Numbered from the stretch's first letter, positions 47,035 through 52,691 are shown. The stretch: 64,000 nt of DNA from an uncultured bacterium (GCA_965651205.1 CBFGRM010000001.1:5621-69620); one strand, 5' to 3'. Notes: generated by a model from the sequence alone, not told the origin. Numbers and translations are program-made.

Positions 47035-48675
47035 GTGAAGCGCGAAATCCTCATCTCCGGTACCCCGCGCGAGACGCGTGTGGCGATTCTGGAAGACGAT
47101 CATCTCGTCGAGCTGCTGGTTGACCGCCCCGACCGAAAGCGGATCATCGGTGACATCTACCTGGGGCGGGTAGAAGCGGTACTACCCGGAATCCAGGCCG
47201 CCTTCGTGGACATTGGCCTGGAGAAGTCGGCCTTCCTGCACGCCTCCGACCTGCTGGAGCCGGAGGACGACGACGAGGCCGAGGAACTCTCCGATGCTGA
47301 AGTGGAGATCGACGAGCCACCCGCTGTCGACGGCGAATCCGGTGATGCGACCGCGACAGCCACTGTGGTCGCCCCGCGGCGTCGCGGCGAGGGGGGGCGG
47401 CGCGAAGTCGGCGCGCGACGCGCCGCGGTCCCCGACATCTCCGAGCTGCTCAAGAAGGGCCAGACGCTGCCGGTGCAGGTGATCAAGGAGCCGATCTCCA
47501 CCAAGGGCAGCAGGGTCACCGCGCAGATCTCGCTCGCGGGCCGGTTCCTGGTCTATATGCCGTACGCGTCGCGAGTCGGCGTGTCGCGCAAGATCGAGTC
47601 GCGCGAACAGCGCGCCCGTCTCAAGGAGATGGTCGCACGACACCTGCCGCCTGATGCAGGTGGGATGATCGTTCGCACCGTGGCGGAGGGAGTCACCGAG
47701 GAGCATTTCCGGCGGGAGATCGAATCGCTGCTGGCGCTGTGGCAGAAGGTCAAGCGCAAGCAGCACTACGTCAAGAAGGCGCCGGCGCTGCTGCACCGGG
47801 AGGCGTCGCTGACTCGTGCGCTGGTGCGCGACGTGTTCTCCGCCAAGGTCGATGCTCTGTGGATCGACTCCCGGGAGCTGATGGGTGACATCGGTCAATA
47901 TCTCGAGCAGGTAGATCCCGAGCTGCTGCCCAGGGTGCACCTGTACGAGGATGCGGTGCCGCTGTTCGATCACTTCAGGATCGAGCAGGAAATCCGCGAC
48001 CTGTTCAAGCAGCGCGTCGACCTGCCCACCGGTGGCTACGTGATCATCCAGCCCACCGAGGCCCTGATCTCGGTGGACGTGAACACCGGCCGATACACCG
48101 GGAAGCGTGACCCCGAAAAGACCATCCTCCGGACCAACCTCGAGGCGGCGCGCGAGATCGCCAGGCAGATCCGGCTCCGCGACGTGGGCGGCATCATCGT
48201 GGTGGACTTCATCGATATGGAGTCGCGCACCAACCGCGAGCGGGTTCTCCAGGAACTGCGGACCCACCTGGGGCGCGACCGGGCGAGGACCCGGGCCTTC
48301 GCCGTCTCCGAACTCGGATTGGTGGAGATGACCCGCCAGCGGGTCAGGGCGTCGCTGTGGGCCTCGATGACCCGCGAATGCCCGACCTGCAGCGGCACCG
48401 GCAGGGTGTTTGCCCCCGAGGTGGTGGCCAGGCGCCTCGAACGGGCACTCAGGCGGGTCGGAGTCGAGCACAAGGAGCGCAAGCTGGCAATCAGGCTCCA
48501 CCCCGACGTGGCGATCTACCTCCTCGAGGAGGAGCCCAAGCTGGTCCAGCTCCTGGGCCGCCAGGGGTCGCTCGACCTGGAGATTCGCGACGACCCGATG
48601 CTCCGGCTGGACGAGTTCCGCCTGATGTCCCGGCCGGCCGGTCGTGACGTGACCGAACTCTACGCGGTGGCCTGA
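47035..48675 (+). CDS. rng: ribonuclease E/G family protein (catalytic domain, no scaffold tail)
   Basis: GDIYLGRV..VLPGIQAAFVDIG, VQVIKEPI.TKG, GRFLV, DVNTG, TNLEAA, GGII.VDFIDM, C.TC.GTG. Confidence 0.93.
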   Translation: MKREILISGTPRETRVAILEDDHLVELLVDRPDRKRIIGDIYLGRVEAVLPGIQAAFVDIGLEKSAFLHASDLLEPEDDDEAEELSDAEVEIDEPPAVDGESGDATATATVVAPRRRGEGGRREVGARRAAVPDISELLKKGQTLPVQVIKEPISTKGSRVTAQISLAGRFLVYMPYASRVGVSRKIESREQRARLKEMVARHLPPDAGGMIVRTVAEGVTEEHFRREIESLLALWQKVKRKQHYVKKAPALLHREASLTRALVRDVFSAKVDALWIDSRELMGDIGQYLEQVDPELLPRVHLYEDAVPLFDHFRIEQEIRDLFKQRVDLPTGGYVIIQPTEALISVDVNTGRYTGKRDPEKTILRTNLEAAREIARQIRLRDVGGIIVVDFIDMESRTNRERVLQELRTHLGRDRARTRAFAVSELGLVEMTRQRVRASLWASMTRECPTCSGTGRVFAPEVVARRLERALRRVGVEHKERKLAIRLHPDVAIYLLEEEPKLVQLLGRQGSLDLEIRDDPMLRLDEFRLMSRPAGRDVTELYAVA

Positions 48676-48693
48676 ACCCGCTGCCCCACGGGG

Positions 48694-48722
48694 TTGCGGC
48701 CATTGGTCAGATCCGCTATTCT
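48694..48722 (+). promoter_or_regulatory. sigma70-like promoter of rplU-rpmA
   Basis: TTGCGG-17 bp-TATTCT. Confidence 0.65.
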
Positions 48723-48762
48723 TCGGGGCTACGTCCCGAATTCACGGACTCGAAGGATCGTT

Positions 48763-49080
48763 ATGTACGCGATTTTCAAGGCTTTGGGCAAGCAGTTCCG
48801 CGCCGAGAAGGGTGCCACCCTGCAACTCCCCTATATGGAGGAGAAGCAGCCGGGTGACGAGCTCTCGTTCGACGAGGTGCTGCTCACGTCCAACGGCGAT
48901 ACCATCCAGGCTGGCACGCCGATCGTGTCCGGCGCCAAGGTGACTGCCGAAGTGGTCGGCCACGGCAAGGAAGACAAGATCTACGTCTTCAAGTTCAAGC
49001 GTCGCAAGAACTACCGCCGCAAGACCGGCCATCGGCAGAAGTTCACCGAGGTCAAGATTACCGACGTCGTGCTCGGGTGA
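48763..49080 (+). CDS. rplU: 50S ribosomal protein L21
   Basis: MYAI...[27 protein letters not shown]. Confidence 0.98.
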
Positions 49081-49088
49081 GGTGAGAT

Positions 49089-49346
49089 ATGGCACATAAA
49101 AAGGGCGTCGGCTCCAGCCGCAACGGCCGCGATTCCAACCCGCAGTACCTCGGCGTCAAGCGCTTCGGGGGCGAGACGGTCACCGCCGGATCGATCCTCG
49201 TCAAGCAGCGTGGCACCAAGTTTCATCCCGGCAAGAATGTCTTCGTTGCCAAGGATGACTCGCTGCACTCGTACATTGACGGCGTCGTCAGGTTCGAGCA
49301 CAAGAACAAGCAACGGATGAAGGTGTCGGTCTACCCGGTCGCCTGA
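49089..49346 (+). CDS. rpmA: 50S ribosomal protein L27
   Basis: [30 protein letters not shown]. Confidence 0.99.
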
Positions 49347-49369
49347 ATCGGCGCACCAGGGTGTGCAAT

Positions 49370-49405
49370 GGGCCGGCTCCCCAAGGGTGCCGGCCCTTCT
49401 TTCTT
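49370..49405 (+). terminator. intrinsic terminator after rpmA
   Basis: GGGCCGGC...GCCGGCCC 8-bp stem (plus inner CCC/GGG) followed by TTCTTTCTT. Confidence 0.8.
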
Positions 49406-49423
49406 GCCGATGCTGCCCACCAC

Positions 49424-50092
49424 TCAAGCATCCAGGCAGATTCCCGCCACCCCGAGCGCCAACAGGTCACTCGCCCGCTCAACAGGGACCGTCCAGGCAA
49501 TCACCTCCAGCGACGCCTCCTCGCACCGCCTGATCAGGTCGGTGTCGATCAACTGCCACTGTTGCCAGAGGATGCTCGCTCCGGCATCACGGCACTGCCG
49601 CTCGGGGAACACCGGATACGAGCAGGACAGCACCCCATAGCCGAAAGCCGTGTCCAGCCCGCGGAGACGCTTGATGACCCTGTGATCAAAGGAGTGGAGG
49701 TAGTAGCCCTCAGGATTGGGGCCATCGTGAAGTACCCTCAACAGCTCGCGATCCGCCGATTCGTCCAGACCCTTGGCCTCGACATAGACATCGAGTGTCC
49801 CCAGCACGGCCAGCGCCTCGCTCAAGAGGGGAATCAGGGAGCCGTCCGACAATCGCTCCCGGCGCAGCTCGGCCAGGCTGCTTTCGGCGATGACCCTGCC
49901 GCCGGCAGTGACCGGATCGTGGTGCAGGATGATCTGGCCATCGGCGGTGCTGTGGATATCGATTTCGACGCCGGTCAATCTCGGCTCCGAGATATCCACA
50001 GCGGCAGCCAGGGCGCTGATCGAGTTCTCCGGACCCCGTGAGGTGACGCCGCGATGACCGATCAGGGGTAGTGACTCGGGTGTGTAATCCAA
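49424..50092 (-). CDS. glycerophosphodiester phosphodiesterase family protein
   Basis: GHRG..PENS, EIDIH.T.DG..ILHHD, VEAK, SFD, WTV. Confidence 0.9.
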   Translation of the reverse strand: MDYTPESLPLIGHRGVTSRGPENSISALAAAVDISEPRLTGVEIDIHSTADGQIILHHDPVTAGGRVIAESSLAELRRERLSDGSLIPLLSEALAVLGTLDVYVEAKGLDESADRELLRVLHDGPNPEGYYLHSFDHRVIKRLRGLDTAFGYGVLSCSYPVFPERQCRDAGASILWQQWQLIDTDLIRRCEEASLEVIAWTVPVERASDLLALGVAGICLDA

Positions 50093-50191
50093 GTGGATCC
50101 CCTTGTGGAGACAGTGTCGACACTGTGGAAATGACTTGATGTGGCAATAGTTATCATCATTGTCTACACCGCTTTATGTACATTATCCACA
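50092..50191. other. AT-rich DnaA-box cluster (candidate oriC or DnaA-binding locus)
   Basis: Perfect TTATCCACA at 50183-50191, three 2-mismatch boxes in the same orientation and four degenerate inverted boxes; 43% GC over 50091-50190 by hand count. Confidence 0.6.
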
Positions 50192-50346
50192 AGGCGGCTG
50201 AGGCCAGACCCAGCGACAACTTTGGACCGCTTGGTCCCGGCCCGCAAGCCAGTGCAGGGTAATGGCGCAAGTCGTTGCGCGACAAGAAGACTGGCGGGTG
50301 CTACATTTCGGCTCGGTCAGCCACATATTCCTGGAGACGCCCCGGT

Positions 50347-51690
50347 ATGCGACGACTCATCGGAACCACCCTGGGTTTGCTCGCGGCCAGCGTCTCGATT
50401 CAGGCTCAGGATGCGGTGGTCTATCGCATCCCCATTTCAGGCACGATCGAGCACGGTTTGGCGCCTTACGTGGCCCGGGCAATCTCGGAGGCCTCCGCCG
50501 ATGGTGCGCGCCTGGTGGTCCTGGACATCGACACTCCGGGCGGCCGGATCGACGCTGCCGAGCGAATCGTTGACGCTGTCAGGAACTCCCCGATTGACGT
50601 CATTGCCTACGTCAACCCCCGCGCCTGGAGTGCCGGGGCGATGATCGCCCTGGCCGCCGATCAGATCTGGGTGGCGCCCGGCGGCGCATTGGGTGCGGCG
50701 ACACCTGTCGACGGATCGGGGACCAAGGCGGCCGAAAAGATCGTCAGCGCGATGCGGGCCGAGTTTCGTTCGCTGGCAGAGGCGCGCGGGCGCGATCCGG
50801 CGATCGCCGAGGCAATGGTCGATGAGTCGCTAGGGGTGGAGGGGCTTGCAGCACCTGGGCAATTGTTGTCGCTGAGTGCCAATCAGGCGGTCGAGGCGGG
50901 TTTTGCCGAGGGCCAGGCGGCCACGCTGGATGAACTGCTGGCCAGCTTCGAGCTTGCGCAGCCGCGGGTGGTCACCCCGGACGCCAATTGGGCCGAGAAC
51001 CTGGTGCGGTTCCTGACCAATCCGATGGTGGCACCGCTGCTACTTTCGCTCGGTATGCTGGGGCTGATCTTCGAGATCAAGACCGGCGCTTTCGGTCTGG
51101 GGGGACTGCTGTCACTGGGCGCCCTGGGACTTTTCTTCGGTTCATCGTACCTGATCGGACTCGCCGGATGGGAGGAGATCATCCTGCTCGGCGTCGGCCT
51201 GATCGCACTTGGTGTCGAGGCCTTCGTGTTGCCGGGCTTCGGCGTCGCCGGGATCCTGGGGGTGGCTGCCGTCAGTGGCGCAGTGGTGTTGGCGCTGCTC
51301 GGCTCCGCCCCGTCTGGAGGAGATATCACGATGGCACTGGCAGTACTCGGCGCCGCGTTGGTGATTACCGGGGCGGTGGTGTTTGCGTGGCTTCGGCACC
51401 TGCCCAATTCGGAGCGGTGGGGCGGCTTGCTGCTCAAGGGATCGGTGCATCGCGATGAGGGCTACCTGTCTGCCCCGGCGCGCGACGAACTCATCGGGCG
51501 CGTCGGTGTGGCGCTGACCGATCTGCGACCCTCCGGGACGGCGGTGGTCAGCGACGAACGGATCGACGTGGTGAGCGAAGGTGAATGGGTCCGGGCCGGT
51601 GCCGAGGTGGTCGTGGTGCGCTCGGAAGGATACAAGCACGTGGTGCGGGCAGCCCCGCAGGCAACCACAACCCCTGACGCAGGAGCTTGA
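50347..51690 (+). CDS. nfeD: NfeD-family membrane serine protease
   Basis: Signal peptide, [29 protein letters not shown] block, C-terminal OB fold ([10 protein letters not shown]). Confidence 0.93.
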
Positions 51691-51695
51691 GCAGA

Positions 51696-52691
51696 ATGGA
51701 TCAGGATTCGGCCGGACTTGCCACTCTCTTCGTGCTGGTGATCTTCGGATTCCTGGCGCTGGTCATCTTCTTCCGCTTCATCCCGATCGGCCTCTGGATC
51801 CGCGCCGCCGCGAGCGGCGTGCGGGTGCCGTTCATCACGCTTTTCGGGATGCGGTTCCGGAAGGTTGACCCGACCCGGATTGTCGACCCGATGATCACCG
51901 CAACCAAGGCCGGACTCGACCTGCAGATCAATCCGCTGGAGGCGCACTACCTGTCGGGCGGCAATGTCGCCCGGGTCGTCAATGCGCTGATCTCGGCGGA
52001 CAAGGCGGGCATCCCGCTCACGTTCAAGCAGGCGACCGCGATCGACCTCGCCGGTCGGGACGTGCTTGAGGCGGTGCAGGTGAGCGTGAATCCGAAGGTG
52101 ATCACCACGCCCAAGGTTGCAGCGATGGCAAAGGACGGCATTCAGCTCCTGGCGATGGCGCGTGTTACCGTCCGTGCCAATGTCAACCGGCTGGTCGGTG
52201 GTGCCGGTGAGGAAACGATCATCGCGCGAGTCGGCGAGGGAATCGTCAGCACCATCGGTTCGGCCGATTCGCACAAGAAGGTGCTGGAGAACCCCGATAT
52301 GATCTCCAAGACGGTGCTCGCCAAGGGTCTCGACGCCGGCACGGCATTCGAGATTCTCTCGATCGACATCGCCGACGTCGACGTCGGCAAGAACATCGGT
52401 GCCGAGCTGCAGACCGACCAGGCCGAGGCGGACAAGCGTATCGCGCAGGCGAAGGCGGAGGAGCGTCGCGCACTCGCGGTGGCGATGGAGCAGGAATACA
52501 AGGCGGAGGCGCAGAATCAGCGCGCCAAGCTGATCGCCGCGGAGGCGTCGATTCCGCTGGCGATGGCCGACGCGTTCCGCAGCGGCAACTTCGGGGTGAT
52601 GGATTACCAGCGCTATCGCAACGTCGAGGCCGACACGGATATGCGGCGTTCGATCGCCTCTGGTGACGCCACGGAAACCAGCGAGAGCTGA
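51696..52691 (+). CDS. floA: flotillin-like protein FloA (YqfA)
   Basis: [48 protein letters not shown]. Confidence 0.95.

Follow-up and report, generated by a model that had tools for sequence, protein, structure and literature searches.

Here, we present a computational analysis of an array of DnaA boxes in an uncultured bacterium of the Gemmatimonadales. The array lies in a 64,000-nucleotide stretch of DNA, hereafter the window, which corresponds to C1:5621-69620 (GCA_965651205.1, CBFGRM010000001.1) of a metagenome-assembled genome (a draft of 2.38 Mb in 152 contigs with 66% GC, in which contig C1 measures 143 kb); positions are those of the window unless a contig is named. An earlier reading of this DNA, made from the sequence alone (the sequence-only reading), had listed eight boxes at 50092-50191 and proposed that they form a chromosomal origin of replication (oriC) unlinked from dnaA, with the caveat that the site could also be a DnaA-regulated promoter or a datA/DARS-like site. 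Our evidence favors the caveat. With a confidence that we put at about even, we suggest that the array is a DnaA-responsive promoter, comprising core promoter and 5′ leader, of the gene for a glycerophosphodiester phosphodiesterase (GDPD), that it also serves as a secondary DnaA-binding cluster, and that it is conserved in Gemmatimonadales. What was computed here is the presence and statistical excess of the motifs, the degree to which orthologous loci conserve them, and the lack of origin signatures; the promoter positions, the binding of DnaA, and the direction of regulation are inferred.

The DnaA-box array and the predicted GDPD promoter

The GDPD gene and the elements of its predicted promoter and leader are as follows (scores in bits are those of a lineage-specific box matrix, which was built from invariant boxes of the type found in a second array on contig C66, described below).

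49424-50092, minus strand: GDPD gene (Pfam PF03009), 222 aa, TTG start at 50092
49951-49959, minus strand, and 49992-50000, plus strand: two one-mismatch boxes ATATCCACA inside the GDPD coding sequence
50092-50104, minus strand: predicted ribosome-binding region, from sequence, with the Shine-Dalgarno (SD) sequence AAGGGGA (50098-50104), the spacer GGATCCAC, and the start codon; contains the three-mismatch "box" AGTGGATCC
50104-50112, minus strand: box E7, GTCTCCACA, in the predicted GDPD 5′ leader; 11.0 bits
50111-50126, no strand: element E6, a perfect 16-bp palindrome ACAGTGTCGACACTGT with the core TGTCGACA
50124-50132, minus strand: box E5, ATTTCCACA, over the predicted −10 (TCATTT, 50129-50134) and start region of the GDPD promoter; 14.4 bits
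50140-50148, minus strand: weak box E4, ATTGCCACA, within the predicted 17-nt promoter spacer; 10.0 bits; TTGTGAC in relatives
50152-50157, minus strand: predicted GDPD −35, ATGATA (box TTATCATCA of the sequence-only reading), deduced from two alignments (6 and 18 loci) of the orthologous upstream DNA; TTGATA or GTGATA in relatives
50160-50168, no strand: element E3, TGTAGACA / TTGTCTACA, of the TTGT-NN-ACA class; TTGTCCACA, TTGTAAACA, or TTGTCAACA in relatives
50174-50182, no strand: element E2, TTATGTACA, poorly conserved; CCCACAA or GTGCATA (CCACA-like) in relatives
50183-50191, plus strand: box E1, the perfect box TTATCCACA; TTGTCCACA, TTGTCGACA, TTGTGCACA, and similar in relatives

All eight 9-mers of the sequence-only reading were present where it had placed them, and the abutting box pairs are repeated at 23 bp as it described. 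The perfect box TTATCCACA at 50183 stands alone in the window, where 0.07 such boxes are expected, and the 2.38-Mb assembly contains four in total. The GC contents counted by hand were exact (43.0% over 50091-50190 and 36.7% over 50131-50190), and the array is indeed the most AT-rich stretch of the window at both 60 and 100 bp (next lowest, 47% and 50%); in the whole assembly, it is the joint most AT-rich 60-bp segment (35%) and ranks third for 100 bp. The boxes are in strong excess: 50092-50191 holds six with at most two mismatches against a mean of 0.56 in 2,000 dinucleotide-preserving shuffles, none of which reached six. Among the box clusters of the genome, the locus ranks first by consensus-mismatch score, shares first place for the TCCACA core (5 per 300 bp versus 0.07 expected), and comes second with the lineage-specific box matrix (six hits and 79 bits; four hits and 42 bits in third place).

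As for the identity of the boxes, the list of eight stood in part. TTATCCACA, ATTTCCACA, GTCTCCACA, and perhaps ATTGCCACA resemble the conserved boxes of the lineage, giving three to four credible boxes in the non-coding part, within 50104-50191, whereas TTATCATCA is −35-like, TTGTCTACA is a TGT-NN-ACA element, TTATGTACA is a poorly conserved element, and AGTGGATCC belongs to the ribosome-binding site and start codon. Because they lie in codons of the conserved GDPD (V/I)DI/IDIH motif, the two ATATCCACA boxes at 49951 and 49992 may reflect coding constraint. The outer boxes form a perfect 9-nt inverted repeat, CCTTGTGGA (50101-50109) and TCCACAAGG (50186-50194), which flanks the core promoter on both sides, and the single-strand fold of the array has a modest z-score of −2.1 that is driven by the inverted boxes and the palindrome.

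Orthologous loci were recovered by GDPD-anchored searches of assemblies, and their upstream regions were aligned, first 6 and then 18. The ancestral layout, which is shared across the order and was found in L075, L078, L079, and 12 metagenome loci, consists of rng-rplU-rpmA, GDPD on the opposite strand, and a divergent unit for an extracytoplasmic function (ECF) sigma factor, a putative anti-sigma factor, an LTXXQ protein, NfeD, and FloA. The species studied here and its relative L072 lack the three-gene cassette for ECF sigma, putative anti-sigma, and LTXXQ, and because this cassette was lost, the GDPD upstream region adjoins the promoter of nfeD itself. An ~85-nt module is present in 16 of the 18 syntenic loci at GDPD identities of 42-63%. 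In the direction of GDPD transcription, it reads E1 (TGT-NN-ACA), E2, E3 (TTGT-NN-ACA), a −35-like element, 17 nt, a −10-like TAAtTT (TCATTT here), E5, E6 (xACA), and E7, followed by the SD sequence and the start codon; TTTCCAC overlaps the −10, and TGT-NN-ACA and TCCACA elements flank the AT-rich core on both sides. The E5 position carries (A/G)TTTCCAC(A/G), ATATCCACA, or ACTTCCACA in 12/18 loci and TTTCAAC in 4/18, the module being absent in the other 2/18, while the E7 position retains TCCACA, TCCACC, or TCAACA. In L072, a relative with 63% identity, GAGGATCCAC-GTG is kept and TGTCGACA is also found at E6; in L075 and L076, TGTCGACA lies at the distal element. E5 has the same box form as the invariant C66 boxes GTTTCCACA and TTTTCCACG and is of the type to which the strongest boxes of the C66 array belong, which supports that it is a DnaA box.

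When the 150 nt upstream of each GDPD gene were scored with the box matrix, the syntenic loci averaged 2.17 hits and 16/18 of them were hit at least once, as compared to an average of 0.12 for GDPD homologues found in a different gene context, of which 4/50 were hit at least once (Mann-Whitney p = 3e-11), and 0.23 in composition-matched shuffles (~9-fold lower than in the syntenic loci). The interval, whose conservation in relatives the sequence-only reading had named as a check, is thus conserved in terms of both module and matrix hits in 16/18 syntenic loci. Individual boxes turn over between species (0-4 hits), and the promoter core is the best-conserved part. Using blastn, the window gap that contains the array had no real match in 51 genus genomes because the core is too short and too diverged; the conservation is visible only via gene-anchored loci. 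Likewise, the region upstream of nfeD first seemed unconserved in genus relatives because the sigma cassette intervenes. Within the species, the array is identical in three other assemblies, and same-species contigs have three single-nucleotide polymorphisms in the 155 bp adjoining the array and none in the array, which is weak evidence. We consider it hardly credible that the array is a chance product, i.e., an AT-rich promoter with box-like words. Taken alone, boxes with two or three mismatches are weak evidence, and other elements account for half of the eight boxes listed; however, the count reached in none of the shuffles, the genome-wide outlier status, and an excess that is kept at the orthologous loci all speak against chance.

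Relative to the predicted GDPD promoter, the boxes cover parts of the −10, of the leader, and of the DNA flanking it upstream. We propose that DnaA binds to E5 (ATTTCCACA at 50124, over the −10 and start), to E7 (GTCTCCACA at 50104, in the leader), and to the distal E1 (TTATCCACA at 50183). The distal and leader boxes form an inverted repeat bracketing the promoter, and DnaA, by oligomerizing or bridging over the AT-rich core, would occlude RNA polymerase. Transcription of GDPD would then track DnaA activity, as might that of the divergent ECF-sigma/LTXXQ/nfeD-floA operon in relatives, and the dense cluster would also keep some DnaA off the origin in the manner of the non-origin DnaA-box clusters in Bacillus. 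A far-reaching version of this model, which we rate as unlikely, holds that DnaA across Gemmatimonadales directly gates GDPD, an enzyme that recycles phospholipid head groups, and also, via the divergent region that they share, an ECF-sigma/LTXXQ/NfeD-flotillin operon for envelope stress, and so couples membrane lipid turnover and envelope state to the replication cycle, and that the module of the present species, with its perfect box and inverted bracketing boxes, was built into a datA-like sink after the loss of the cassette.

Several observations weigh against a DnaA-responsive promoter. E1 and E3 vary as TGT-NN-ACA and include poor DnaA boxes (TGTAAACA, TGTCAACA, and TGTAGACA), and E5 is TTTCAAC in four taxa; the variation at E1, E3, and E5 fits another, possibly dimeric, regulator at least as well, and the T-rich stretch in the 5′ half of E5 might be nothing more than the −10 hexamer. 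The syntenic loci L101 and L103 lack the module. The promoter hexamers derive from alignment only, and a simple scan of 49900-50500 for sigma-70 promoters and terminators called nothing, including the GDPD promoter. Finally, to our knowledge, GDPD is not a known DnaA target, and in model bacteria, GDPD genes (glpQ/ugpQ) are typically under Pho or GlpR control.

Because the middle dinucleotide of E1 and E3 is free, E5 is TTTCAAC in those four taxa, and E5 may in part be the −10, a palindrome-binding or Pho-type regulator is a serious rival, which we regard as possible if somewhat doubtful. The operators would in this case be either the TTGT-NN-ACA(A) palindromes, with E1 and E3 at a distance of 23 bp and TGTCGACA at E6, or xCACA direct repeats with a phase of ~10-11 bp, bound by a local repressor of the GntR-like, palindrome-binding kind or by a PhoB/PhoP-type response regulator of GDPD, and the likeness to DnaA boxes would be partly incidental. 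At E1 and E3, CC, AA, CA, AG, CT, GC, CG, and GG all occur between the conserved TGT and ACA; perfect palindromes are seen both in L075 and L076 (TTGTCGACAA) and in the genome analyzed here (16 bp, at E6). The regulons to which glpQ/ugpQ belong in model bacteria point in the same direction, and the core in L075 and L072 carries GTCACAAT/GTCACAAC, a word that is repeated upstream of the genome's own phoB-phoR-pst operon. However, the DNA upstream of phoB lacks boxes of the TCCACA type and has its repeats at a spacing of 19 bp, and the core word of the present species, GTGGCAAT, is two mismatches away from GTCACAAT. Moreover, no regulon is visible, because outside this site TTGTNNACAA is missing from the non-coding DNA of the genome, where TGTNNACA shows no enrichment. 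E5 and E7 (TTTCCACA and TCCACA) misfit the palindrome and fit the DnaA boxes of the lineage, and it is with the DnaA matrix specifically that the site stands out from the rest of the genome.

Two candidates of this kind were tried and rejected. A palindrome regulon was rejected on the grounds that TTGTNNACAA and TGTNNACA are neither enriched nor repeated in non-coding DNA, save for a similar site upstream of a sigma factor gene on contig C4, and a Pho-box array on the grounds that the motif upstream of the phoB/pst operon on contig C25, an operon located by its PstB signature, differs in sequence, spacing, and lack of TCCACA from the window core. That motif is an observation in its own right: at C25:17020-17055 (minus strand), upstream of phoB-phoR-oprP-pstSCAB(B)-phoU, C(G/C)GTCACAAT occurs twice in AT-rich DNA and is a candidate Pho box or promoter.

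The array could instead be a dedicated DnaA-control locus of the datA, DARS, or Bacillus cluster type, which would mainly titrate, inactivate, or reactivate DnaA, with the effect on the promoter being secondary. We rate this as improbable. In density, the array is exceeded by just one other box cluster of the genome; one of its boxes matches the consensus perfectly, its inverted boxes surround an AT-rich, bendable core, and the cluster is conserved across the order. However, the non-coding part has just three to four credible boxes, which change in number and identity between species, whereas the promoter core is kept best, and such a function is not inferable from sequence. A DnaA-responsive GDPD promoter remains the reading that we prefer.

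Strand asymmetry and the search for the origin

The proposal that the site is the chromosomal oriC did not hold up, and we consider it very improbable. In its favor, the locus has the highest or second-highest density of DnaA boxes in the genome, its boxes lie in both orientations, and its 60-bp core is the joint most AT-rich of the assembly. Also, the flanks of dnaA, which according to the sequence-only reading should be checked for a lack of boxes, contain only one matrix hit, and no other locus of the fragmented genome has a proven origin signature, including the C66 array, across which the sign of the skew stays the same within its 10.6-kb contig. Against it stand the strand composition, the orientation of the neighboring genes, the nature of the AT-rich core, and the array on C66.

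Contig-level GC skew in this genome is bimodal (~±0.02-0.05) and correlates with gene-strand bias, which makes a test of polarity informative. The inflection of GC skew that had been suggested as a check was sought on the 143-kb contig and is missing at the site: raw GC skew is positive from ~45 kb to the left to ~87 kb to the right. The skew at third codon positions (GC3 skew) is −0.028 to the left versus −0.025 to the right of the site for plus-strand genes and +0.132 versus +0.098 for minus-strand genes. The replication component, defined as third-position skew minus the genome-wide coding-strand bias, is +0.043 to the left and +0.025 to the right (~8,900 third positions per side), where an origin predicts ~−0.04 to the left; a different GC3 estimate with the transcription-strand effect removed gave +0.052 versus +0.037/+0.043. 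Judged by skew, the site is situated midway along a replication arm. Moreover, rplU and rpmA are directed at the site and would run head-on into a leftward fork. The sequence-only reading had seen no clear DnaA-trio tract, and we likewise found no DnaA-trio in the site: the 60-bp stretch of 35-37% GC contains no run of TAG/TAA trios and no repeated 13-mers. Because this "unwinding-like" core aligns with the conserved −35/−10-like core of the GDPD loci, it is best explained as a promoter.

A better box cluster was found on contig C66, in an ~530-bp gap between the genes for a class II fructose-bisphosphate aldolase (fba, minus strand) and pyruvate kinase (pyk, plus strand). Its position and the replication component at the corresponding array in three relatives with long contigs are as follows.

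C66:5980-6300 (locus L027:1701-2021), outside the window: array of ~10 boxes in ~330 bp of non-coding DNA
Relative G058: left −0.019, right +0.044 to +0.091
Relative G012: left −0.030, right +0.052
Relative G014: left ambiguous, right ambiguous

The gap has blastn matches in 12 of 51 genus genomes, and in an alignment of 10 species, the boxes GTTTCCACA, ATCCACA, TTTTCCACG, TTATCCACG, TCTTCCACA, TGTGGAG, and TTTTCCACA are invariant, while the spacers vary. Two of the three relatives thus show a switch of polarity at the array. On the genome's own C66 contig, there is no sign change (−0.077 versus −0.030, with few sites), and a pseudo-scaffold C11-C66-C50-C51, which was ordered by the synteny of a relative and for which adjacency in the genome itself is not established, has no clear skew switch at C66. 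Judging by the gene order of a relative, the array is more than ~70 kb from the contig of the window. Based on box number and conservation, we suggest that the C66 array is a better origin candidate than the window site, although a candidate only and unproven.

In a change-point scan of all contigs, every switch was short-range and none coincided with a box cluster. Local minus-to-plus switches of the GC3 replication component (~−0.07 to +0.05) occur at ~13.4 kb on C34 and ~8.6 kb on C29; no DnaA boxes lie within 600 bp of either, and these switches may be rearrangement scars or noise. A literature search for a Gemmatimonas oriC found nothing relevant, and we know of no experimental work on replication control in Gemmatimonadota and of no origin mapped in the phylum.

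Neighboring genes and other DnaA-related loci

The array occupies part of the 254-bp gap (50093-50346) between the divergent units GDPD (minus strand) and nfeD-floA (plus strand). The 222-aa GDPD product is called identically in three further assemblies of the species. The other genes and features around the gap, with genes assigned by Pfam, are as follows.

47035-48675, plus strand: rng, directed at the site
48694-49080, plus strand: rplU, directed at the site
49089-49346, plus strand: rpmA, directed at the site; rng-rplU-rpmA spans 47035-49346
50279-50346, plus strand: predicted nfeD promoter and leader, from sequence, with −35 GCGACA (50279-50284), TGc-TACATT (50299-50307), and SD GGAGA (50333-50337)
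50347-51690, plus strand: nfeD (Pfam NfeD1b_N, NfeD_membrane, NfeD), in an operon with floA
51687-52691, plus strand: floA (Pfam FloA); nfeD-floA spans 50347-52691

The predicted −35/extended −10 of nfeD (50279-50307) begins ~90 nt past the last box of the array; its TACATT element is kept in L072, and TAGATT-type elements occupy the same place in genus relatives. Following the loss of the sigma cassette, nfeD-floA was left with only this TACATT-type promoter of its own. A direct repeat, CGCAAGCCAGTGC / CGCAAGTCGTTGC, with copies 23 bp apart, is located at 50243-50278, directly upstream of the predicted nfeD −35. An Rfam scan of 48600-50600 at E ≤ 1 gave no match.

Strong boxes are rare in this genome, with 25 in non-coding DNA, and mark plausible DnaA targets, i.e., genes for ribonucleotide reductase, a sigma-70-family protein, and tRNAs. 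At C11:16920-16961, the two strong boxes GTTTCCACA and TTTTCCACA, 33 bp apart, lie directly upstream of the gene for the ribonucleotide reductase large subunit (C11:14184-16928, minus strand). The ribonucleotide reductase gene is a classic DnaA target in other bacteria, and the C11 boxes are likely part of a DnaA-regulated nrd promoter. At C4:49413-49560, a box cluster upstream of a gene of the sigma-70 family has words in common with the window site (TGTGGACAGTGTGCAG versus TGTGGAGACAGTGTCGAC, and TGTAGACA in both), and these two promoters may share regulators. At C46:8397-8815, three of the highest-scoring boxes of the genome flank two tRNA genes between convergent protein genes, with TGTGGAAAA before the tRNAs and, after a hairpin terminator, TGTGGAAAAC, 16 nt, and TGTGGATAAC.

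The dnaA gene is outside the window, as the sequence-only reading had stated; we found it on contig C35 beside dnaN, and its product is canonical, with N-terminal, AAA+, and DNA-binding (IV) domains. The dnaA-dnaN spacer (C35:6175-6408) contains a TAGTAGTAG / TCGTCGTAGTAGTAG run of DnaA-trio-like TAG repeats followed by a G-rich stretch and has one weak box only; the run may represent either a relic or an unwinding element of minimal size. Separately, C23:3672-5999 (minus strand; loci L002/L003) encodes an ~658-aa protein in which a DnaA-type AAA+ module occurs twice in tandem (two matches to Pfam Bac_DnaA, together 292 bits) and the DNA-binding domain DnaA_C is missing; the gene that directly follows downstream on the minus strand codes for a protein rich in tetratricopeptide repeats.

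Comparison with known systems and implications

Bacteria are well known to have both DnaA-box clusters outside the origin and promoters under DnaA control; Gemmatimonadota are an unstudied phylum in this respect. In Bacillus subtilis, non-origin DnaA-box clusters are intergenic, e.g., at yqeG-sda, ywlC, and yydA. The window site is similarly an intergenic, off-origin cluster that overlaps predicted flanking promoters and is plausible as both operator and DnaA sink; unlike the B. subtilis clusters, it is smaller (three to four credible boxes in 100 bp plus two in coding sequence) and is mixed with TGT-NN-ACA palindromes. With DnaA-regulated promoters, such as those of dnaA itself by autoregulation, nrdAB, sda of B. 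subtilis, and the Caulobacter DnaA regulon, it has in common a box over the predicted −10 and start together with flanking boxes, and the genome itself has strong boxes at the ribonucleotide reductase gene; here, however, the promoter is a predicted one, the target is a cytoplasmic GDPD, and the divergent unit in relatives is ECF-sigma/LTXXQ/NfeD-flotillin. The site resembles datA, DARS1, and DARS2 of Escherichia coli in that boxes of opposite orientation form a short cluster around bendable, AT-rich DNA at a distance from oriC, but it has no sequence homology to them, and its best-conserved part is a promoter core. Finally, boxes in both orientations beside the most AT-rich DNA of the region are also found in bacterial oriCs; in contrast to these, the window site has no skew switch, no divergent gene orientation, and no DnaA-trio or 13-mer-type unwinding element, is small, and overlaps a promoter.

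Altogether, our findings remove a false origin candidate and document a conserved promoter module that bears DnaA boxes. They also illustrate that box density and AT-richness can mislead the prediction of origins in high-GC drafts and that candidates need to be tested for polarity over 50-100 kb of flanking DNA; the fba-pyk array on C66 is a better place to seek the real origin. If DnaA indeed binds to the module, then GDPD, and possibly the envelope-stress/flotillin operon, would join the DnaA regulon of the phylum.

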